A stretch of 64,000 bases of DNA from an uncultured virus (IMG/VR IMGVR_UViG_3300021376_000011) (Duplodnaviria > Heunggongvirae > Uroviricota > Caudoviricetes): the IMG/VR virus record IMGVR_UViG_3300021376_000011. One strand, given 5' to 3'. This document shows positions 1 to 50,141 of the stretch, in pieces. The translations under genes were made by a program, and so were the position numbers. A model generated the notes under the pieces. That model had not been told where the DNA came from and did not search any database. It worked only from the letters and a program-made list of their open reading frames with translations. The first letter of the stretch is position 1, and every line of letters starts with the position of its first letter.

Positions 1-3000
1 ATGGTGTAACACTTGGAGTTACTGAACTAGTAGGTGTAACACTTGGTGTTCTACTTGGTGTAACAGATGGTGTAACAGAACTTGTAGGTGTTACTGAAGG
101 TGTTACTGAAGGTGTAACACTTGGTGTAACAGAACTAGTAGGAGTTACTGATGGTGTAACTGAAGGGGTAACACTTGGTGTTCTACTTGGTGTAACAGAA
201 CTAGTAGGTGTGACGCTTGGTGTTACAGATGGTGTAACACTTGGAGTTACTGAACTAGTAGGTGTAACACTTGGTGTTCTACTTGGTGTAACAGATGGTG
301 TAACAGAACTTGTAGGTGTTACTGAAGGTGTTACTGAAGGTGTAACACTTGGTGTGACAGACGGAGTTACCGATGGTGTAACTGAAGGTGTTATGCTCGG
401 AGTTACGGAAGGTGTTACAGAACTTGTAGGTGTTACAGATGGTGTTCTACTTGGGGTAACGGATGGTGTAACAGATGGTGTAACAGATGGTGTGACACTT
501 GGTGTTACCGATGGTGTTACCGATGGTGTAACACTAGATGTTGGTGTAACACTTGGTGTTCTTGATGGTGTGATTGACGGTGTTACCGAACTAGTAGCAG
601 TAACTGAAGGTGTAACACTTGGAGTCACGGATGGGGTTACTGAACTAGTTGGTGTAACGGAAGGTGTTCTTGACGGTGTGATAGATGGGGTTACACTCGA
701 TGTTGGTGTGATAGATGGAGTAACAGATGGAGTAACAGATGGAGTTACTGAACTACTTGGTGTTACTGATGGTGTAACACTTGGTGTAACCGATGGAGTT
801 ACTGAACTAGTGGGGGTTACTGAAGGAGTTCTTGAAGGTGTAATAGAAGGTGTAACGCTTGATGTTGGTGTAACTGATGGGGTAACTGATGGGGTAACAC
901 TCGGAGTAATAGAACTAGTTGGTGTAACGGATGGGGTAACTGATGGAGTTACTGATGGAGTTACTGAACTACTCGGTGTTACCGACGGAGTAACTGAAGG
1001 AGTAACACTTGGTGTTCTTGATGGTGTTACCGACGGAGTGATTGATGGGGTTACCGACGGAGTGATTGATGGGGTTACAGAAGATGTTGGTGTAACTGAT
1101 GGTGTGACACTTGGCGTAACTGATGGTGTGACAGAACTTGTAGGAGTTACTGAAGGAGTTCTTGAAGGTGTAATAGAGGGTGTAACGCTTGATGTTATTG
1201 ATGGTGTTACTGATGATGTGACACTCGGAGTAACCGAAGGTGTAACTGAACTGGTTGGTGTCACCGATGGTGTAATAGATGGGGTAACTGATGGAGTTAC
1301 AGAAGGTGTAACTGATGGTGTAACACTCGGAGTTTTACTTGGTGTGATAGATGGTGTAACACTAGATGTTGGTGTAACTGATGGTGTAACAGATGGTGTA
1401 ACACTTGGAGTTACAGAAGATGTTGGTGTCACCGATGGTGTAACACTTGGTGTAACTGAACTTGTTGGGGTAACAGATGGTGTCACTGATGGAGTGACTG
1501 ACGGGGTTACCGAAGCGGTTACTGATGGTGTAACAGAAGGTGTTCTACTTGGTGTAATAGATGGTGTGACAGAACTAGTGGGTGTGATTGATGGTGTTAT
1601 AGAGGGTGTTACCGAACTTGTTGGAGTTACAGATGGTGTTACGGATGGTGTTATTGATGGTGTTACAGAAGATGTCGGTGTAATTGATGGTGTGACACTC
1701 GGAGTTACAGATGGTGTTATAGATGGAGTAACGCTTGGTGTAACTGAAGGTGTAACAGATGGAGTTACAGAACTAGTAGGTGTAATTGATGGTGTAACCG
1801 AAGGTGTAACCGAAGGTGTTACGGAACTTGTAGGTGTGACACTCGGAGTTACAGATGGTGTAACTGATGGTGTGACGCTCGGTGTAACAGATGGTGTTCT
1901 ACTTGGTGTTATAGATGGGGTAACTGAAGATGTCGGCGTAACTGATGGTGTGACACTTGGAGTCACGGATGGAGTAACGGAACTTGTTGGAGTAACGGAT
2001 GGTGTAACTGATGGTGTAACAGAACTAGTAGGGGTGATAGATGGTGTTACTGATGGAGTTACAGATGGGGTAACAGAACTGGTAGGTGTTACCGATGGTG
2101 TAACACTTGGCGTAACTGATGGTGTTTTACTTGGTGTAACAGATGGAGTTACAGATGGTGTGATACTCGGAGTGATTGACGGTGTTACCGAACTTGTTGG
2201 AGTAACAGATGGTGTTCTACTTGGTGTTACAGATGGTGTAACAGATGGTGTTACAGATGGGGTAACGGATGGGGTAAGTGAAGGCGTTACGCTCGGGGTT
2301 ACTGAACTTGTAGCGGTAACCGATGGTGTTATACTTGGAGTTACGGATGGGGTTACAGAACTTGTAGGTGTCACCGACGGAGTAACTGACGGTGTCACGC
2401 TTGGTGTAACTGATGGTGTAACACTTGGAGTCACTGATGGTGTTACAGATGGTGTAACACTTGGAGTTACTGAACTAGTAGGTGTAACCGATGGTGTTAT
2501 ACTTGGAGTTACGGATGGAGTTACAGAACTTGTTGGAGTTACAGACGGAGTAACTGACGGTGTTACAGATGGTGTGATAGATGGTGTAACACTTGCGGTA
2601 ACAGAAGGTGTTCTACTTGGTGTTATAGATGGTGTAACAGAACTAGTAGGTGTAACCGACGGAGTTACAGATGGTGTAACAGATGGTGTTACTGAACTAG
2701 TAGGTGTTATTGATGGTGTTATAGACGGTGTTACCGATGGAGTTACACTTGAAGTTGGAGTTACTGATGGCGTTACTGATGGTGTTACAGATGGTGTGAC
2801 TGATGATGTTGGAGTGACTGAGGGTGTAACAGATGGTGTAACACTAGATGTAACTGATGGTGTGACACTCGGAGTAACTGAAGGGGTAACAGATGGAGTA
2901 ATAGATGGAGTTACAGACGATGTTGGAGTAACACTCGGAGTTACAGACGGTGTTACCGATGGAGTAACTGAACTAGTGGGCGTTACCGATGGTGTGACAC

Positions 3001-6000
3001 TAGGTGTAATCGATGAAGTAACTGATGGGGTTACAGAAGGGGTTACAGAAGGGGTTACAGAAGGGGTTACGCTCGGTGTAACTGAAGATGTTGGCGTAAC
3101 CGATGGTGTGGTACTTGGGGTAACTGATGGTGTAACTGACGATGTAACACTAGGTGTAACTGATGGTGTGACACTCGGAGTAACTGAAGGGGTAACACTT
3201 GGGGTTACTGAACTTGTTGGAGTCACCGATGGTGTTATACTTGGAGTTACGGATGGGGTTACGGATGATGTCGGTGTTACTGATGGGGTGATAGAAGGTG
3301 TGACAGATGGGGTTACGGAACTAGTTGGTGTGACACTCGGAGTTACACTTGGGGTCACCGAGCTGGTTACTGACGGTGTTACAGAAGAAGTTACAGATGG
3401 TGTAACTGATGGTGTTATTGATGGTGTTACAGAACTAGTAGGTGTAACTGATGGGGTGATAGATGGGGTAACACTTGGCGTAACAGAACTAGTTGGTGTA
3501 ATTGAAGGAGTTACTGAAGGAGTTACTGAAGGAGTTACTGATGGAGTTACTGAACTAGTAGGAGTGACAGAGGGTGTTACTGATGGAGTTACAGATGGGG
3601 TAACACTTGGTGTAACAGAACTGGTGGGAGTGACAGAGGGCGTTACAGAGGGTGTTACTGATGGAGTTACTGATGGGGTAACACTTGGTGTAACAGAACT
3701 AGTAGGTGTAACGGAAGGTGTAACAGATGGTGTTACACTTGGTGTAACCGATGGTGTAACCGATGAAGTGGGAGTTACTGATGGTGTAACACTTGGTGTA
3801 ACAGAACTAGTAGGTGTAACGGAAGGTGTAACACTAGCAGTTACTGAAGGTGTAACAGAACTAGTTGGGGTCACTGACGGAGTAACACTTGGAGTCACCG
3901 AAGGTGTAACAGAACTAGTAGGAGTTACAGAGGGTGTTACTGATGGAGTTACGGATGGAGTTACAGATGAAGTAGGAGTTATTGATGGTGTAATAGATGG
4001 GGTAACACTTGGTGTAACAGAACTAGTGGGTGTAACGGAAGGTGTAACAGATGGTGTTACACTTGGTGTAATGGAACTAGTAGGAGTTACAGAGGGTGTT
4101 TCAGATGGTGTAACAGAAGGTGTAACAGATGGTGTAACACTTGATGTTGGTGTTACTGATGGTGTAACGCTTGGTGTAACGGACGGTGTAACTGATGATG
4201 TTGGTGTTACACTTGGTGTAACGGAAGGTGTAACGCTTGGTGTAATAGAACTCGTAGGAGTTACAGATGGGGTTATTGATGGTGTAACAGATGGGGTTAC
4301 AGACGATGTGGGTGTGATAGAAGGGGTAACGCTCGCGGTCACCGATGGTGTAACTGAACTAGTGGGGGTTACTGATGGTGTAACACTCGGAGTTACTGAG
4401 GGTGTGACAGATGGGGTAACACTTGATGTAGGTGTTAGTGATGGTGTAATAGAAGGTGTAACACTTGGTGTAACAGATGGTGTGGTAGATGGGGTGACAG
4501 AACTTGTCGGTGTAACACTTGGTGTAAGACTTGGGGTTACTGAAGGAGTAATCGATGATGTTGGTGTTACTGATGGAGTTACGGATGGTGTAACAGATGG
4601 TGTAACAGAACTTGTTGGGGTGATACTAGAAGTTACTGATGGTGTTACCGAGCTGGTTACTGACGGTGTTACAGATGGTGTCACGCTCGGTGTTACGGAA
4701 GGTGTCACAGAACTAGTTGGTGTAACACTTGGTGTAACAGAAGGTGTTACTGATGGCGTAACAGAGGATGTAGGGGTTACAGATGGTGTAACACTCGGAG
4801 TTACTGAAGGAGTAATCGATGATGTTGGTGTAACACTCGGTGTAACACTTGGTGTTTCAGATGGTGTAACACTCGGTGTAACACTTGGTGTTTCAGATGG
4901 TGTAACACTCGGTGTAACTGAACTTGTAGGTGTTACTGATGGTGTAACAGATGGTGTAATAGACGGTGTTACCGAACTAGTGGGGGTTACTGATGGAGTT
5001 ACGGATGGCGTAACAGATGGTGTAACTGATGATGTTGGTGTTATACTTGGTGTGACCGACGGTGTAACTGATGGAGTTACAGAACTAGTAGGTGTTATTG
5101 ATGGTGTTATAGACGGTGTTATTGAACTAGTAGGTGTTACTGATGGTGTAACAGACGGTGTAACAGACGGTGTTACGGAACTAGTAGGTGTAACAGATGG
5201 TGTAACGCTTGGTGTGACCGATGGTGTGACAGAACTAGTGGGAGTTACAGAAGGTGTAACTGACGGAGTGACCGATGGTGTAACAGAACTAGTAGGGGTC
5301 ACCGATGGTGTTTCAGATGGTGTGACTGAACTAGTTGGTGTCACACTAGGAGTTACTGAAGGTGTTATACTTGGTGTCACAGAAGACGTTGGTGTAACGG
5401 AAGGTGTGATGCTTGGTGTAACAGACGGTGTTACTGAACTAGTAGGTGTAACAGATGGTGTAACACTTGGTGTAACACTCGGAGTTACTGAAGGAGTAAT
5501 CGATGATGTTGGTGTAACACTCGGTGTAACACTTGGTGTTTCAGATGGTGTAACACTCGGTGTAACTGAACTTGTAGGTGTTACTGATGGTGTAACAGAT
5601 GGTGTGACTGAACTGGTTGGAGTTACTGATGGTGTAACAGACGGTGTAACAGACGGTGTAACAGAACTAGTTGGAGTCACAGAAGGTGTTACGCTAGGTG
5701 TTTCAGATGGGGTTACAGAACTAGTTGGTGTAACGGAAGGTGTAACACTTGGTGTAATAGATGGTGTAATAGAACTAGTGGGAGTCACAGAAGGTGTTAC
5801 GCTAGGTGTTTCAGATGGGGTTACAGAACTAGTGGGAGTTACTGATGGTGTAACAGAAGGTGTTACCGATGGTGTTACGGAACTAGTGGGAGTTACAGAT
5901 GGTGTTTCAGATGGTGTAACAGAAGGTGTAACGCTCGGAGTTATTGACGATGTTGGAGTAATTGAGGGTGTAACACTTGGAGTTATTGAAGGAGTTACCG

Positions 6001-6755
6001 ACGATGTTGGTGTTACAGATGGGGTAACACTTGGTGTTTCAGATGGTGTAACACTTGGTGTAACTGAACTAGTCGGGGTTACAGAAGGTGTTTCAGATGG
6101 GGTAATAGATGGTGTAGCACTTGGTGTAACAGAACTAGTTGGTGTAACAGATGGTGTTACACTCGGTGTAACCGAAGGTGTAACAGAAGATGTAGGAGTT
6201 ACAGAAGGTGTAACACTTGGTGTAACCGATGGTGTAACTGAACTAGTAGGTGTTACTGATGGTGTTTCAGATGGTGTAACACTTGGTGTAACTGAACTAG
6301 TTGGAGTTACAGAAGGTGTTTCAGACGGGGTAATAGACGGTGTAACACTTGGTGTAACAGAACTAGTAGGTGTTACTGATGGTGTAACAGAGGGTGTTAC
6401 ACTTGGTGTAATGGAACTAGTAGGTGTTACAGATGGTGTAACAGAGGGTGTTACTGATGGTGTAACACTTGGTGTAACCGATGATGTTGGTGTTACTGAT
6501 GGAGTTACTGATGGTGTAACACTTGGTGTTATTGAACTAGTAGGAGTTACAGAAGGTGTAAGTGATGGGGTGATGGAAGACGTGGGGGTTACTGATGGTG
6601 TTTTAGATGGTGTGATACTCGGAGTTACGGATGGTGTAACACTTGGTGTAACTGAACTAGTGGGTGTAACACTTGGTGTTCTACTTGGTGTAACAGAAGG
6701 TGTTACTGATGGTGTTTGTGTTAATGTTGGTGTAGGTGTGGGTGAAGGAGTGGGA
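1..6755 (-). repeat. Degenerate coding tandem repeat of 12-bp (TPSV/TPSI) and 18-bp (TPTSSV) units
   Basis: Continuous GGTGT(A/T)AC-type units with variation mostly at third codon positions of the minus-strand frame; exact internal duplication 1-127 = 229-355. Confidence 0.97.
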
Positions 6756-6949
6756 CAAGGAATTTCAGCCACACAGGTTTTATCCAGTGATGGAAAATAA
6801 ATTGAGTAAGTACCTAAATAATAGTTTGTTTCGTAATAATATGGCATTAGGACGGAACCTAAATTTATGGTACCGCCAGTACAAGGATAAAATGTAATGT
6901 CACCGATTTCCTCATTAAAATTACCCGCGTTTATTTTTATTAATGCCAT
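1..6949 (-). CDS. Giant Thr/Pro/Ser/Val-rich (mucin-like) repeat protein, >2316 aa, runs off the left edge; probable virion fibre or decoration protein
   Basis: ATG at 6949 gives [26 protein letters not shown]...[26 protein letters not shown]...; no stop in this frame down to position 1; same strand as neighbouring structural genes; absent from the ORF track, presumably because it has no stop in the window. Confidence 0.9.
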
Positions 6950-7039: not shown

Positions 7040-10000
7040 TCATGGACAATCAAAAATGGAACTACTTAATTCCTCATTAGTTGGTTCTGTAGGACAATGG
7101 TTGGCATCGATATAATATTGACCGAGGTTGAATCCAATATTTGGATGTTTATCATATTTGTGTTTCATCAGAATTTTGTCACTGTTGTTTCCGTTAAAAA
7201 CAACAACAAATTCATCATCTATTGGTGTATTGTCTAATTCAAAGTTTAGATTGAAGTATAATCCTGTATCGCAATAATTTAAATCGACATCAATTACTTC
7301 TATGGTTTCACCATATTTGTTTATTAAATAATCTCCGTGATTGTATAATTCTTTCGGATGGTCGCAACAAGGTTCAATAAAATCTATTGGTTTTTTCTGT
7401 AATTCCTCAGGAAATCTGTCGTCAAAAAAGTAAACACTATTTGTTGGTGTCCCAAAATTTTCAATAATTCTATTTGTATAAACTCTTAGTTGTGTTGTTG
7501 GTAAAACTTCAAAAACTTCATAGGTGTTATTTTGGGTCAATCCCGTGATAATACTTTTCTTTATTGATGCTAAACATTCAATATCCGTGATTTCAAGTTT
7601 TTGATAGTTGTACGTAAATGAATATCCTGATACAGGACCATTAACAATTTGTTGGTGACTATATTCTGTACATTGTTTATATGAAGCGGATAAAACATAT
7701 TCCCCAACATTTAAATCACAAACACTTTTACCACTTATCGTACCACCACTAATATAACTTTCAATATTACTATCGGTTGTTTGGTCATCAATGGTTAACC
7801 CACTATTAACCACCAAAACAATAGAGTCACATTTTAGCCCATAGTTAAAGTTTGATTTGTATTGTACTTTTGGTTGTATAGTATAACCCGTGTAATTGTC
7901 ACAGTATGTTGCACCTGAAACAACTGAAATTGGTGAAGCGATTGTTCCTTGGTAACCAACAATACTGAATAACTCTACGTGACTCTTTCCTGATGGTGTT
8001 GGACATGGGTCATGTTCAATTTTGGGTTGTAGACCTTCTATTTTGAATTTTACTTCTTTATTCGCAGCATCTACAATATTGAAATCTATTACATCATTTT
8101 CTGAAACACCAGTTAATTTGTATACACAATCACTAACTTTTTGAATGTGAACATCCGCATTTTCATTTGTTCCACTCACACAGTTAGCATAAATGTTAAA
8201 TGGCCATGTTGAACCTTGTTGAATTCCTGTTTTATACCCAATTACCTCAAAAAATACATCACTTACTAAAGTGCACCCACTATTTGAGTCACAGTAAACG
8301 GTATTATCAGTATAAACTTTAACACTGATTCCATGTGTATTTTTTGTAATTTTATAATCAGCATCAAATCGATAATCAAAATAGTCAACCACCGAACATT
8401 CGTTTGGTCCTAATTTTACGGATGAAAACTTAACTTTTTCGACACCATTTTCATCAGTGTATGTTGTGTATTTTATTAATGGTATTGTTTCTGAAAAATA
8501 TGTTTGACCAGTGGTTCCCGTGAAAGCGGAATAGGGTTCATATCCCGCGCTATTTCTTGTAATAGTTACGTCATCAATCAATACAGATAATGCCGATAAC
8601 CATAATTCTTTAATTTTAGTAACATCAGGTTCAAGATAATCTTTATAATCACATATTAAGGAAAGATTTACAGTATCACCACTTGTTACACCACTCGTAC
8701 ATCCTGTAAATGGTTGTGCGTCAAATAATTTTGCACTATTTGAAGTGTTACTTGTTCCACTAACAATTACATACATGGAAGATGTTAGTCCTGTGTAATT
8801 AGCACCACCATAAACTGTTCCGTCAATTTCAATTACCGGATAATAAGTAACACCGGTAAGGTTTATTAAACCTCTGAAATTATTTTCTTCGCCTAAAATG
8901 TTTTCTAAATCTTCTTCGATTACGTTTTCAAAATCAGGGTATAATTCCTCGATAAATTCTAATGGTTGGCAATCATATCTATATTGATATTTTGGTCTAC
9001 CAAAAACGTTATTTTCAATTAAATTACCACCAGTCCATTGAGTGGTTGATGGTACTAATTGTTCTACTAATTGTGGCCAATATGGAGATAATTTATTTAC
9101 AAATTCAGTGACATTTATTTGGTTATATGGTGTGAAACCTGTGGTTTGTGAAATATAATCTCTATAAACATCCTCTAACTGTATATAATTTTTATTGTAA
9201 CGAATTTTGTTTGAATTAGTTACAAGACTATGAATAAATGTGTCTAAAAATTCAGCAAAAGTTTTACCTGTTTGAGGTAATAAAGTATTTGTACCAAAAC
9301 TTATTAATAATTCTCTACTTTGTCTAAATATATCATAATCTATACCTCGTGATGGTGAGATATAAATTCCAATATTTTTTCTATTTAAAATTAATAAATA
9401 ATCATCTTCAATTGGTTTTCCGTCTTTATTATCAACAGCAGACACCAATTCATAACCTGTATCTAAACCCGGTAATGTTCTATATAAATCAAAATATTCT
9501 TCTCCGTATGTATAGTTTTTATTCTTTGTTTTAATTGTTTTAGTGTTACCCGTCAATATTGAGTTACTACTATCTAAAACAAGTGGAGAACGATGTGATA
9601 ATGTAATATCGTACCATCCTGAACCTTTACCAAAGAAAATGTTTTCAGTTTCATTATATGCTCTTCTTGGTAGTCCAGTTTTTTCGTCTACGGGGTAACC
9701 CTCTCTATCAAATGTTGTTGATGCTGAGTAGTAAACTTTAGAGTATGTGTAACCTGTGCTGTCAAAAGTTGCATAGGAATATCTTTTACTACCTTGAATC
9801 GCGTCGTATATATCTTGTTGTAAATTAAAACTAGACGGTATCGATGTGACTTTATAAATATACTCATCGATTCTAATTAAAGGTTCTGGTGCTCCTAAAA
9901 ATTTCAAAAAGAAATCAATAGAAGATTTTGTTCCTTTTGATTTATAAATGTGTGCGAGATTTATTAATAATCTTCGATAAAACTCATATTCAGATTCAAT

Positions 10001-46448: not shown

Positions 46449-46937
46449 TTAGTAAACTAAAATACATCTATCCATTCTTAACGAACATGTGATAGATGCA
46501 ATATCATCTCTTGAATAATCAAGTTCGTTAAAGTTTAAGTCGGTTATGAAAGAACCTTGAAGTATCCATTTTTCAACCACAACCCCCGTTGGGTCTAACA
46601 TCTCTAATTCAATATCCTTTTTATAACCAGCTGCGTAACCCATACGACCTGTTACTGATTCGGCGTGTAGACGGAACCATTCCATCAACGCTTGTGACGC
46701 TGAAGGACCAATTGGGTCTTTGAAGGTTACTCTTATTTCACTCCATTCAAATCTACCAGCAACATATGTTGAGGTGTTTATAAAAGGAATTGCAACTGAA
46801 TTTATTTTTGCGCTTGGTCTTGCACTTGATGTTACATACCATTCATTTATTCCTAATGATGAAGGAAATCTAAGTATGAATCGGTTAACTCTTTTCGGTT
46901 CGTAAGGAACCGGCATTTTCATTAATAAATCTGCCAT
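46449..46937 (-). CDS. Tail tube protein (T4 gp19-like)
   Basis: EPKRVNRF, YVAGRFEW, YKKDIELEMLDPTG and LDYS motifs; directly downstream of the sheath gene. Confidence 0.92.
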   Translation of the reverse strand: MADLLMKMPVPYEPKRVNRFILRFPSSLGINEWYVTSSARPSAKINSVAIPFINTSTYVAGRFEWSEIRVTFKDPIGPSASQALMEWFRLHAESVTGRMGYAAGYKKDIELEMLDPTGVVVEKWILQGSFITDLNFNELDYSRDDIASITCSLRMDRCILVY

Positions 46938-47031
46938 GTCAATATTTGTTTTTTATTTTTTTTATTTTTAATCTTTCTTATAAATATGTTGTATATGAAA
47001 AAACAAAAAAAATCTTCTCAATACTTGATTT

Positions 47032-47054
47032 TGTGAAAATTATTTCGTATTTTT
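47032..47054 (+). promoter_or_regulatory. Promoter-like box TGTGA-N6-TTTCGTAT pointing into the CTAG array
   Basis: The same bipartite motif with the same spacing lies upstream of the DNA polymerase gene (59975-59993, minus strand). Confidence 0.5.
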
Positions 47055-47059
47055 TCCAT

Positions 47060-47177
47060 ACTAGTACTAGATGCTAGTAAATTAAGAACTAGATTAAAGA
47101 AACTAGAATAACTAGAAAGAAATAAACTAGATAAAAATAAACTAGAACTAGAACTAGAATACTGGTGCATATACTGG
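47060..47177. repeat. Non-coding array of (A)CTAG motifs, candidate origin iterons
   Basis: CTAG at 47061, 47067, 47074, 47089, 47103, 47112, 47127, 47142, 47148 and 47154, then CTGG at 47162 and 47174, in A-rich spacers. Confidence 0.85.
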
Positions 47178-47237
47178 GTAATTTATAATTTTATTTTTTT
47201 TATATTTAGTAGTTCCGTAGGTCACACTATATTATAA

Positions 47238-47253
47238 TGTTCCACGTGGAACA
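47238..47253. promoter_or_regulatory. parS: parS-type centromere palindrome TGTTCCACGTGGAACA
   Basis: Perfect 16-bp palindrome (18 bp with flanks, 47237-47254); one base from the chromosomal Spo0J/ParB consensus TGTTNCACGTGAAACA; intergenic. Confidence 0.8.
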
Positions 47254-47260
47254 TAAAATA

Positions 47261-47278
47261 GGGAGGGTTTCCCCTCCC
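47261..47278. terminator. Terminator after tail sheath, plausibly bidirectional
   Basis: GGGAGGG-GAAA-CCCTCCC on the minus strand with T-rich tails in both orientations. Confidence 0.85.
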
Positions 47279-47285
47279 CTTTTTA

Positions 47286-50141
47286 TTAGATATCATCAAA
47301 TGATGCTCCTGTTGGTGTAATTATGAACTCAACATCTATGAATTCTAGAGCTCTTGTTGGTTTGATATAAATCTTACCTCTCAAAGTATTAGAGTCAATG
47401 TCTTCTGGGTCGTTGGAAACCGTAACACGGAATTCATATAAACCCCTTTCCCTTTTAATTGCATCTAATATTGGGTTAACCAATCTCAAGAATTCATTAC
47501 GAACTTGTTCGTCATTTTGTTCGAATAACAATCTTACCGCTACTGCCGAAATTAATTTTCTAGCCCTTAACAATAATCTTCTTACGTTAATTCTATCCAA
47601 CGCCGATTCACGAATTTGAAGGGTTTTGTTACCCCATATAATTGTGCCGGTATCTGCGTATGTTGCTATTGGGTTAATTCTAGCTTTGTATAGGTCATCT
47701 CTTTCATCTAAAGTTAATTTCTTAACCGCTTTAATTGAATTTACTAATCCTCTTGAATAACCCGCTACCGCAAACCAAGGGAAAGATACGTTATCGGTTA
47801 ACGCAATATTTCTTAAAACTTCACCAGTTGGTGGTAGATATATTTGTACGGCGTTGTCTACGTCTCTAACTTGAATCCAAGGCCAATAAACAGCTGAATA
47901 ATTACTATCAATCGACACACCGTCCAAAGCGTCTATTACTTCATCCGCAGTACTGTAGTTTGGTGGTGAAATTACGTAAAGAGAATCCGCTCTATCGTCT
48001 TCAATCATATCAATTGCATATGACGTTAAAGAACTATTGTCATAGAAGTTAATACCCGGTGTTGCAAAAATGTTTATATCAACTGATTCAGGATTTGAGA
48101 AGGTGTCAATACCTTGGGCGTAAGCGTAGTAATCAGAGTTTCCCGATACCGTGCTAAACACGCCTCCATTATTGGTATTACCACTTGTGTAAGTGTTTTT
48201 ACCAAAGATGAATCCATCACCGTAGGTTCTCACATTTCTATAGATATCCCAACCATCAAATCCTCCAGCAGCGGTAAAAGTGAACTTACGATAATTGATG
48301 TTTGTCAATACGTTACTAACTCCACCTGTTTGACCCTCTAAATCATACGATGTAGTTAAGAAAGTTGTTCCTGTGATTGTAGACGCGTTTGTTGATAAGT
48401 GGAAACCCTTAGTCGTACCAGCCGCTGAAGTTCCTTTGAATTTAAATAAGTCCCTATCGTATGTTACTTTATTGGTTGGACTTGATAAACCAAAGTATGT
48501 TTTTCTCACTTTATCACCTGAAGATAAAACCGGTGTTCCATCTGCGAGATAAGATTCGGTATCACCAGCATTAAAGAATGTAGTTTTGTAAATCACAGAA
48601 CCCAAAGTGTCTGAACCGAAAGTACTGTTATTCGGGAATCCTTTAAATCCGGCGGGATATGCGTCAACGGGGTGATTATCAGACATTAACAGCATAATGT
48701 ATTTTGAACGTATTTCATATTCACCATCGGATGTACCAACCTTTTTAGCCACATAATTAGGTAAATCTGGATTCATACTACATCTACTAAATTTTTCAAG
48801 TACGACAATATTATTGTCTGTATCGTTAAAATCTCTAACAATTAAGTCAAAGTCACCCGTGTCTATATTGATATTAATAATAGAAATTTTTACCTCAAAG
48901 TTCGCTGCGTCCCCGTCTGATATTGTAATTACATCAAATAAATCATTGACTTCACCACCTCTTACTTCAGAAACAACAGTTGGTGATATTGGAGTATCAT
49001 AAGACGTTTTAAAGTCATTACCAACAGTTTCATAAGATTCTGTTAAGCTTAAACCTCTAATATATCCTTCTTCATAAGCTCTTAACAAATAATTTGGATA
49101 AGCTTCAAATACATAAATAGGAACGTCACCTTTTAATTTGTCATAAACATCTGTACCAAATACTTTTGTTACATATTTTGATGACGACGCATCCATACTA
49201 CAAGTAAATGATTTTGCTCCGCTCGTTGAACCTGTAATATTCACTGTAAATTCAGCTAAAGGATTTGTAGTAATTCCTGAACCTGTCACAATGAAATTAG
49301 CATTCCCCGTGGACTCTAAGTTTAAAGTTTGTTGGCTGTAAGAGCCTCTTGGTCTGAACGCTAAAACAACCTGATTATTATATGCCGTATTGAGTGTTGC
49401 GTTGTAGGTGAACTTAGTCACATCAAATCTACTTGCACCACTGTTGTATACAAATAAGTAAGAATACACTTCAGAACCCGCGGAATTTACTAAAACATTA
49501 TACCATTCCTTATTGTTATTATTATTTGCGTTATTTAAACCTGTTAGAGGAGAAAGTTCTTCAAGTGATGCGGTTTGACCAGAGGTTTGTGAAGTTGGTA
49601 CTTCACCCATAACAAACCACTCTCCATGATTAGATGATGTGTTACCACTAAAGTTTGCCACAATATAATCTGTAATATAATTTCCATCTACAGATATTTT
49701 ATCTGATAGTTCACTATAAATCGTACTTGCCGTGATTGTTGTGGTCTGTGCTGACATTGTTAAACCCGTGGTTGTACCACTAAGCGATTCCAATATAACA
49801 CCAGCAATTGTCTTAACCCCGTAAGTTTTAACAGGTAAGTAACCCGTTAAACCCAATATTTTTGTTACAAATAATTGGTTTGATTCTTCTAAATAAGATT
49901 TTGCAAAATAAGGTAATTCATATTTTGGGTTATTGTTGTTGTCTTTTAAGGGACTTGTTCCTCCAAAATATGACTTGAATTCGTCAAAATTAGTTATTAA
50001 TAAAGGTTCAAAAGCGGGACCCTTTAAGGTTTCACCCACCAAACCTAATGTGCTGACACCAACACTTTGTGCCACGAATGTTAAGTCTTTTTCGGATGTG
50101 TATACACCCGGAGATACAAAAACTCTATTTGAATTTGCCAT
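47286..50141 (-). CDS. Tail sheath protein (T4 gp18-like, 951 aa)
   Basis: FVSPGVYTSEKD, GETLKGPAFEP, PWFAVAGYSRG, WGNKTLQ, DRINVRRLL and IKPTRALEFI motifs. Confidence 0.97.
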   Translation of the reverse strand: MANSNRVFVSPGVYTSEKDLTFVAQSVGVSTLGLVGETLKGPAFEPLLITNFDEFKSYFGGTSPLKDNNNNPKYELPYFAKSYLEESNQLFVTKILGLTGYLPVKTYGVKTIAGVILESLSGTTTGLTMSAQTTTITASTIYSELSDKISVDGNYITDYIVANFSGNTSSNHGEWFVMGEVPTSQTSGQTASLEELSPLTGLNNANNNNNKEWYNVLVNSAGSEVYSYLFVYNSGASRFDVTKFTYNATLNTAYNNQVVLAFRPRGSYSQQTLNLESTGNANFIVTGSGITTNPLAEFTVNITGSTSGAKSFTCSMDASSSKYVTKVFGTDVYDKLKGDVPIYVFEAYPNYLLRAYEEGYIRGLSLTESYETVGNDFKTSYDTPISPTVVSEVRGGEVNDLFDVITISDGDAANFEVKISIININIDTGDFDLIVRDFNDTDNNIVVLEKFSRCSMNPDLPNYVAKKVGTSDGEYEIRSKYIMLLMSDNHPVDAYPAGFKGFPNNSTFGSDTLGSVIYKTTFFNAGDTESYLADGTPVLSSGDKVRKTYFGLSSPTNKVTYDRDLFKFKGTSAAGTTKGFHLSTNASTITGTTFLTTSYDLEGQTGGVSNVLTNINYRKFTFTAAGGFDGWDIYRNVRTYGDGFIFGKNTYTSGNTNNGGVFSTVSGNSDYYAYAQGIDTFSNPESVDINIFATPGINFYDNSSLTSYAIDMIEDDRADSLYVISPPNYSTADEVIDALDGVSIDSNYSAVYWPWIQVRDVDNAVQIYLPPTGEVLRNIALTDNVSFPWFAVAGYSRGLVNSIKAVKKLTLDERDDLYKARINPIATYADTGTIIWGNKTLQIRESALDRINVRRLLLRARKLISAVAVRLLFEQNDEQVRNEFLRLVNPILDAIKRERGLYEFRVTVSNDPEDIDSNTLRGKIYIKPTRALEFIDVEFIITPTGASFDDI

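Follow-up and report, generated by a model that had tools for sequence, protein, structure and literature searches.

In Pseudomonas aeruginosa, the parS sites that ParB binds best, parS2 and parS3, both have the sequence TGTTCCACGTGGAACA; sites with one mismatch (...GGAACC) are bound slightly less and those with two mismatches (e.g. TGTTCCACGAGGAACG) less still, according to the available parts of that report (PMC4368675). The heptamers bound in vivo by the same protein comprise GTTCCAC, GTTTCAC, GCTCCAC, GTTCCAT, GATCCAC, along with GTTTCAT, in the accessible text of PMC5961200, and half-sites are described, in the portions available on this species, as giving no ParB spreading. The parS sites of phages phi29 and Nf, together with host Spo0J, serve spore entrapment (PMC2731898, available in part), and KorB on plasmid RK2 slides up to 1.5 kb and represses together with KorA (PMC11790492, available in part). 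Here we analyze a palindrome of the parS type that lies in the gap separating the genes for tail sheath and tail tube in an uncultured freshwater tailed virus (Caudoviricetes; IMG/VR record IMGVR_UViG_3300021376_000011). The stretch of its DNA that was analyzed, 64,000 nucleotides (nt) long, is called the window.

The element is an 18-bp perfect palindrome, ATGTTCCACGTGGAACAT, at positions 47237–47254 of the window:

47237–47254, no strand: parS-type palindrome; its 16-bp core, TGTTCCACGTGGAACA, at 47238–47253, is a chromosomal-type parS word

An earlier note, made from the sequence alone, had claimed a perfect palindrome in non-coding DNA, with the tail sheath gene on one side and the tail tube gene on the other. 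Both points were borne out: the palindrome falls in a gap of 348 bp (46938–47285) that separates a gene matching phrog_23 and PF04984 (sheath) from one matching phrog_4542 (tube). The core showed no mismatch to TGTTNCACGTGNAACA, as expected of the sequence of a chromosomal-type parS, and by sequence the site truly belongs to the chromosomal-type parS words. It had been placed one base away from the consensus, which is correct for the consensus as written in the earlier note; the core actually has the same sequence as parS sites whose binding was shown by experiment. Given the base composition, chance would produce 5e-6 exact copies in 64 kb and 1.4e-5 in record G001 (170,860 bp), while 0.025 copies of the degenerate consensus are expected with at most one mismatch. 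G001, which is 55% complete, holds 100% of the sampled words of the window; an exact string search did not locate the window in it. The second-best match to the 16-mer in the window (7907–7922, three mismatches), the sole other one at three mismatches or fewer, lies within an open reading frame (ORF) of 1414 aa. A scan of the phage genome and its relatives for the 16-mer, which the earlier note had proposed, found the exact word as a single copy in each of the records G001, G002, G003, and G004, and its place was held in relatives. Of these, G002 (288 kb) is 92% complete, and G003, a complete relative of 310 kb, has terminal repeats. A three-mismatch word in G002, at 267813, is within a 421-aa ORF and was taken as a chance match.

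The exact word was found in at least 138 bacterial stretches when one genome per prokaryote species was searched, and these came from many phyla, including Bacteroidota. At least two exact copies stood within a few hundred bases of each other in 28 of the 80 bacterial loci listed; parS clusters usually show such multiple close copies. In Chitinophaga solisilvae, TGTTCCACGTGGAACA is present four times inside 400 bp. The comparison with parS sites of Bacteroidota, also suggested beforehand, showed that the exact word directly adjoins mnmG (gidA), a classic origin-proximal gene, in 10 of the 12 Bacteroidota loci examined (11 genomes, from the set L216–L295; 28 of the 47 flanking ORFs of these loci were compared with NCBIfam). 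The mnmG-proximal position of parS appears to be conserved in Bacteroidota. On these matches, the word is an authentic parS of chromosomes, in the variant used by Bacteroidota.

Relatives of the phage were found with the tube protein, which is encoded by at least 597 IMG/VR stretches; we examined the best 80 of them (85–99% identity, contigs up to 333 kb). For every homologue query the nearest 80 relatives were examined, and several records are fragments. These matches place the phage in a large family of uncultured jumbo phages. A match to the 16-mer with at most three mismatches followed the sheath terminator in 51 of the 80 related loci, seven of the remaining loci having no upstream DNA; when the element was sought by pattern, 51 gaps contained it out of the 70 compared (that of the window and those of 69 loci). 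Across these 70 gaps the core was far better conserved than the flanking positions. The exact word stood in the same gap of two more distant relatives, L016 (85% tube identity) and L080 (82%). In the window's own clade the element was perfectly kept (8 of 8 rows, the L129 variant being the largest departure), and this was also the case in the separate clades of L134, L181, L016, and L080. The centers found in relatives were CACGTG, CACGAG, CACATG, CACGCG, CACGGG, and CACAAG; the last base of the element was often C, and some variants had a one-base insertion (GGAAAC). The CACGTG center was present in at least five clades of a tree built from sheath plus tube, and the perfect palindrome is therefore probably ancestral; several clades have lost the element.

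The arms of the element were compared with the heptamers bound by P. aeruginosa ParB. At least one arm of this type was present in all 35 distinct variants and both arms in 14 of them, a count that is no independent test, since the search pattern partly fixes the left arm. Extra single TGTTCCAC half-sites adjoined the element in six relatives (L129, L152, L171, L178, L181, and L199). Half-sites that behave as units would be more in keeping with recognition by a protein than with a stem.

Outside the uncultured family the matches were remote. No GenBank phage gave a blastn DNA match to the region. The best cultured match to the sheath protein was Microcystis phage Mel-JY01 (33% identity over 77% of the protein), and the DNA polymerase matched those of Salinibacter and Nostoc phages at about 24–28%. 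Mel-JY01 was considered for comparison and found uninformative: its sheath–tube gap of 94 bp has a terminator only, and one two-mismatch word lies elsewhere in its genome.

A six-frame search for ParB_N gave weak matches, below the cut-off (15 bits), in G002 and G004. The ParB-like ORF, at 220903–221655 in G002, encodes 251 aa, contains the motif DGQHR, and along its entire length matches PHROG 12305 ('ParB-like partition protein'; 6e-22); in Pfam its matches were weak only (GmrSD_N, 22.6 bits; ParB_N, 13.3 bits). The gene was present in G002, G004, and G010, which are near-identical genomes, and in G003, G009, and G011; the protein is 100% identical between G002 and G004, and the identity is 45% in G003 and 44% in G009. 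Homologues numbered at least 190 in the protein collection, and the gene is present in at least 258 stretches of IMG/VR. We infer that the window's phage has the gene as well, from genomes with 99% tube identity.

An AlphaFold model of this protein, computed from 27 sequences, reached a predicted local distance difference test score (pLDDT) of 89.7. The model has a ParB/Srx N-terminal domain, which aligned with a root-mean-square deviation (rmsd) of 1.9–2.1. When two domains were aligned together (model residues 5–202), 163 residues were superposed on KorB (8qa9_A, rmsd 3.7), 167 on Noc (7nfu_B, rmsd 4.9), and 154 on the Caulobacter ParB–parS complex (6t1f_B, rmsd 4.8). The N-domain would thus be followed by a helical DNA-binding domain, as predicted by this comparison at the level of fold only. 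D58, G59, H61, and R62 are invariant in the 27 sequences.

No ParA was found: there was no AAA_31 match in G001, G002, G003, G009, or G011, and no CbiA match in G002, G003, or G009, in searches whose controls matched in 14 of 14 genomes. The statement that the window has no parA or parB gene held up, as six-frame searches of G001 gave neither ParB_N nor an AAA_31 ParA. With no ParA found, the site does not qualify as part of a ParABS system.

The arrangement in G011, a family member of 162 kb (52% complete) whose tube protein is 84% identical, differs from that of the window. Its sheath–tube gap contains the terminator and lacks the palindrome; in this gap there are about 10 perfect tandem copies of a 15-nt unit, ACTAGAACTAGATAT (positions 1220–1390 of L596, or about 124960–125130 of G011:C1), an array that is iteron-like in appearance. 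The same genome has four parS words with 0–1 mismatch at positions 484, 1614, 3097, and 4208, and the first two of them flank its ParB-like gene (634–1398, minus strand; 62% identical). Each of the four words is centered in an inverted repeat of about 60 bp with the structure GTTTTGGCAGTA - spacer - parS - spacer - TACTGCCAAAAC (L592, 440–4270), in the gaps surrounding the ParB-like gene; the spacers vary, while the outer arms and the parS word are kept. A second contig, L517, shows the same arrangement. The composite repeat (GGCAGTA..parS..TACTGCC) was rejected as a more widespread element, as 11 matches outside G011 and L517 turned out to be unrelated sequences. Loss of the word from the gap together with four copies beside the ParB-like gene would fit selection for a ParB-type site, and is the strongest sign of it in the sequences compared. 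The same pattern suggests that the phage's own protein may be the reader of the word.

We favor, with a probability of roughly 0.38, the reading that the palindrome is a working parS for a ParB-family protein, the preferred candidate being the phage's own orphan 251-aa ParB-like protein. A dimer of this protein would use its helical DNA-binding domain to read both TGTTCCAC arms, and its ParB/Srx N-domain would bind a nucleotide and close. It would then act locally, or slide as a clamp over the neighboring late structural genes and over the gap, rich in repeats, that precedes the tube gene, and the outcome would resemble regulation in the style of KorB or else a marking or organizing of the phage DNA. 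Host ParB could bind too, the word being a host-type chromosomal parS. Because near-identical genomes carry the ParB-like gene and because parS words surround this gene in G011, host ParB is no likelier as the reader than a protein encoded by the phage; the phage protein is slightly favored over host ParB, and the two readings are not mutually exclusive.

Several observations weigh against a parS read by the phage's own protein. The element is missing from 19 of the 70 gaps, and most of the 35 variants are degenerate: compared with TGTTNCACGTGNAACA, three had no mismatch, seven had one, 17 had two, and eight had three. Strong ParB loading is therefore no family-wide requirement. Four partial genomes without the element (G005–G008, 24–59% complete) contained neither a parS word with at most one mismatch nor a ParB-like gene. 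A displacement of the site to another place was considered for these four records; only two-mismatch words were found, at about the level of controls, and at this completeness the records are uninformative. In G009 (310 kb, 93% complete), the ParB-like gene coexists with only a degenerate gap element, TGTTCCACGAGGAACC. The ParB-like gene was not found in the window or in G001 (55% complete) by six-frame search, and in the window's lineage about 150 kb separate the site from this gene. No parS-like word was present within 1.5 kb of the gene in 77 of the 80 ParB-like loci examined.

The protein itself gives further reasons for caution. Its identity with chromosomal ParB was 11–25% in the structural alignments. 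Its profile did not match solved ParBs significantly (E = 0.14), and the Pfam ParB_N scores, 13–15 bits, were below the cut-off. The CTP (cytidine triphosphate)-binding motif GERRxR is absent from it, and DGQHR stands at the aligned place. Because the similarity is remote and DGQHR replaces GERRxR, shared parS specificity and CTP clamping are conjectural.

The explanation that survives best beside this one is the recruitment of host ParB, which would bind the word, form a CTP clamp, and link the phage DNA to ParA or SMC for positioning, segregation, or a carrier state, or would be titrated by it, the phage's ParB-like protein having another role. We consider it rather unlikely as it stands, although much of the evidence given above agrees with it: the word is the exact chromosomal variant of many bacteria, including Bacteroidota, where it lies by mnmG, and P. 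aeruginosa, and the arms found in relatives, GTTCCAC, GTTTCAC, GCTCCAC, and GTTCCAT, are all among the heptamers to which a chromosomal ParB binds. There are also precedents, as far as the available parts of the sources go: phi29, a lytic phage, has five host-type parS and uses host Spo0J (PMC2731898), and SGI1 hijacks a plasmid parABS (PMC10954446). The phage is without ParA, and its ParB-like protein is too remote for the same specificity to be assumed. A Shine–Dalgarno-like word in only 2 of 34 genes would weakly fit a host of the Bacteroidota type.

Host recruitment also agrees with the abundance of such words in viral contigs. The exact 16-mer of the window was present in more than 121 IMG/VR stretches, and another perfect parS palindrome, TGTTTCACGTGAAACA, in more than 137, where it was often clustered. 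As controls, the 16-mer read backwards and the same word with its two arms swapped were found in 3 and 12 stretches, respectively. In viral contigs, both perfect parS palindromes thus exceeded the controls at least 10- to 40-fold. We scanned the neighborhood of 42 viral parS loci on contigs of at least 20 kb, taking up to four of the longest ORFs per locus (142 ORFs) within 1.5 kb on each side. No ParB_N gene was present among them in 41 loci, the exception being L018; the neighbors were phage genes (terminase, capsid, DNA polymerase A, lysins). Host-type parS words are therefore common in viral contigs, mostly with no ParB gene adjacent to them, i.e. within 1.5 kb on each side. In one group of contigs (L015, L032, L070, and L074–L076), the parS word is within a conserved ORF of about 348 aa.

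Against the recruitment of host ParB stand the four parS copies of G011, which surround the phage's own ParB-like gene, and the fact that the site is single and has two to three mismatches in most relatives, sites of this kind being bound more weakly in P. aeruginosa. In addition, the closest cultured phage infects Microcystis (33% sheath identity). What the earlier note had proposed in this respect stood in one part, since there is a genuine, single-copy, place-conserved parS word for host ParB to bind; the other part is countered by relatives, with 99% tube identity, that encode their own ParB-fold protein. Its further proposal of plasmid-like segregation or a carrier state did not gain ground: no ParA was found, and there was no integrase in G002, the closest near-complete genome, or in G009. 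A stable episomal state would be conjectural, no plasmid-type partition ATPase or other support for it having been found. A tyrosine recombinase of 273 aa (PF00589, 4.9e-36) was found at G003:C1:187797–188246, and among G002, G003, and G009 only in G003. The site is probably real, yet probably no simple hijack of the host.

The features of the gap, together with the two genes that border it, are as follows:

46938–47285, no strand: sheath–tube intergenic region, composite and cis-acting, with a terminator, the parS word, CCAGTAT words, and a CTAG array
47286–50141, minus strand: tail sheath gene, 951 aa (phrog_23, 3.9e-59; PF04984, PF17482)
46449–46937, minus strand: tail tube gene, 162 aa (phrog_4542, 2.5e-24; PF06841 below the cut-off)
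47260–47279, minus strand: intrinsic terminator hairpin of the tail sheath gene, G+C-rich (8 pairs, 6 of them G-C; tail ATTTTATGTT; fold z-score -5.1)
47159–47178, minus strand: two CCAGTAT words (CCCAGTAT ... CCAGTAT on the gene strand), CCCAGTAT being unique to this gap in G001
47061–47157, no strand: array of at least 10 CTAG-centered short repeats (TCTAGTT / AACTAG), the only non-coding CTAG cluster in G001

The order on the gene strand is sheath stop, terminator, 5 nt, palindrome, A+T-rich stretch, CCAGTAT words, CTAG array, and tube start. The T-rich tail of the sheath terminator extends into the palindrome; in relatives the terminator is kept at the same place with a different sequence. 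The CCAGTAT words form a palindrome, CCAGTATACTGG, in many relatives, and were found in the gaps of nearly all of them, including those devoid of parS. Genome-wide, CTAG is depleted (156 observed versus 517 expected), and in G003 the only CTAG cluster again adjoins the palindrome. Because of the unique CTAG cluster and the unique CCCAGTAT, the gap would be a special cis-acting region, more than a spacer. In the gaps of the window and of L124–L203, the CCAGTAT word and the CTAG array occur family-wide, and are kept even where the palindrome is absent. The start codon of the tube gene has no Shine–Dalgarno word. Baseplate genes, a family-B DNA polymerase gene, and a SNF2 helicase gene are found near the gap. 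In G003 a block of co-oriented genes extends over 170 kb, and the site is found about 4 kb in from its start, where the GC skew turns. We considered a replication origin at the gap and did not retain it, as the G003 skew tracks the direction of the genes and offers no signal of its own.

With this layout, the palindrome could be an operator or promoter of the tube gene, read by RNA polymerase or a regulator other than ParB, in which case the match to parS would be convergence on a common palindrome. The site is indeed upstream of a highly expressed late gene, right after the sheath terminator, in a gap rich in conserved words; a TATAA[ATC] box, read by eye, starts 16–18 nt after ATGTTC in many relatives, and conservation is higher in the left arm than in the right. 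However, a sigma-70-type scan called no promoter at the site, and in L080 a distance of 5 nt, without a TATAAT (−10-like box), separates the palindrome from CCCAGTATACTGG. A late-promoter motif should recur, whereas the word is unique in genomes of 170–310 kb, and in G011 it stands at four places unrelated to the tube gene. A 16/16 match to parS reached by convergence is improbable, and we regard this explanation as distinctly unlikely.

Still less probable, indeed very much so, is a hairpin in RNA or single-stranded DNA, i.e. a second stem-loop after the sheath terminator acting in termination, RNA stability, or processing. The palindrome begins 5 nt past the terminator stem, its inner 5 bp (GTTCC/GGAAC) are conserved while the four central bases vary (ACGT, ACGA, ACAT, ACGC, ACGG, ACAA), a double change to GTTTC/GAAAC was observed, and the one-base insertions would give a bulge. 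The covariation of a 7-bp stem over 35 variants was nonetheless 0.060, compared with 0.048 +/- 0.008 in shuffled alignments, 46 of 500 of which scored at least as high. The two outer pairs were unpaired in 22–23 of the 35 variants, and a clade with GCTCC...GGAAC breaks a pair with no compensation. The minimum-energy fold of the region showed no simple hairpin, the terminator scan listed only the neighboring G+C-rich hairpin, and the extra single half-sites beside the element are left unexplained by a stem. Neither the hairpin nor the promoter explanation gains support. A relic of an ancestral or host-acquired site drifting with no function, or a pure chance match, agrees with the decayed versions in many relatives and the loss of the element from several clades, yet is highly improbable in view of the perfect conservation in the window's clade (8/8 rows) and the four separate clades, a chance expectation of 1e-5, and flanks far more variable than the core.

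Two other observations concern the window as a whole. Positions 1–6900 form a large repetitive stretch with a GC content of 45% (about 32% elsewhere) and a GC skew of +0.48. Its repeats consist of 12-nt sub-units resembling GGTGTAACAGAT (Gly-Val-Thr-Asp/Glu), assembled in higher-order repeats of 54–168 nt; both strands are open there, the minus strand for 2316 aa and the plus strand for 2265 aa, and both frames run off the window. The other concerns gene starts: a Shine–Dalgarno-like word precedes only 2 of the 34 window genes, and the leaders are A/T-rich. Few Shine–Dalgarno words fit translation signals of the Bacteroidota or cyanobacterial type, and the gene starts hint at a host with either type of translation initiation.

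If the site works, a lytic-looking 300-kb phage shares a bacterial centromere word, with an orphan ParB-fold protein and with no ParA. The system bears on cross-reading between phage and host ParB, on clamps of the ParB type on phage DNA, and on the over-representation of parS palindromes in viral contigs. One can also imagine, as an unlikely extension of the favored reading, that the minimal ParA-less ParB-fold protein of this jumbo-phage family reads a near-universal parS, marks its own genome, and gains access to the origin-proximal parS of the host, where it would compete with or replace host ParB at the point of SMC or ParA loading, as a device for takeover or a carrier state. Were this true, the over-representation of both perfect parS palindromes in viral contigs would imply a connection of many phages to the ParB–parS biology of their hosts. 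The full-text searches made, outside subscription journals, returned no description of a jumbo phage that combines one host-consensus parS with a ParB-like protein of its own.

Compared with known systems, the site is closest in sequence to chromosomal parS (parS2 and parS3 of P. aeruginosa, and the mnmG-proximal sites of Bacteroidota). They have in common the identical 16 bp, palindromic and non-coding, and the arm variants of the relatives lie in the set of half-sites bound by P. aeruginosa ParB; the phage site differs in being single, amid late structural genes, in a replicon with no ParA. With phi29 and Nf, whose parS act with host Spo0J, it shares a phage of the lytic type, host-consensus parS words, and the lack of a ParA of its own (PMC2731898). 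Yet phi29, as described in the available part of that source, has five sites, no ParB of its own, and a role tied to sporulation (PMC2731898), whereas here there is one site in a 300-kb phage with a phage-encoded ParB-fold protein. KorB has its own operator word, OB, at many sites on RK2, and KorA as a partner (PMC11790492, available in part); the phage, in contrast, has the chromosomal parS word at one site, no KorA-like partner was identified, and DGQHR stands for GERR. SGI1 resembles it as a mobile element with docking sites for a partition protein encoded elsewhere, but according to the accessible text it hijacks the parABS of an IncC plasmid, not that of the chromosome, and is an integrative element rather than a phage (PMC10954446).

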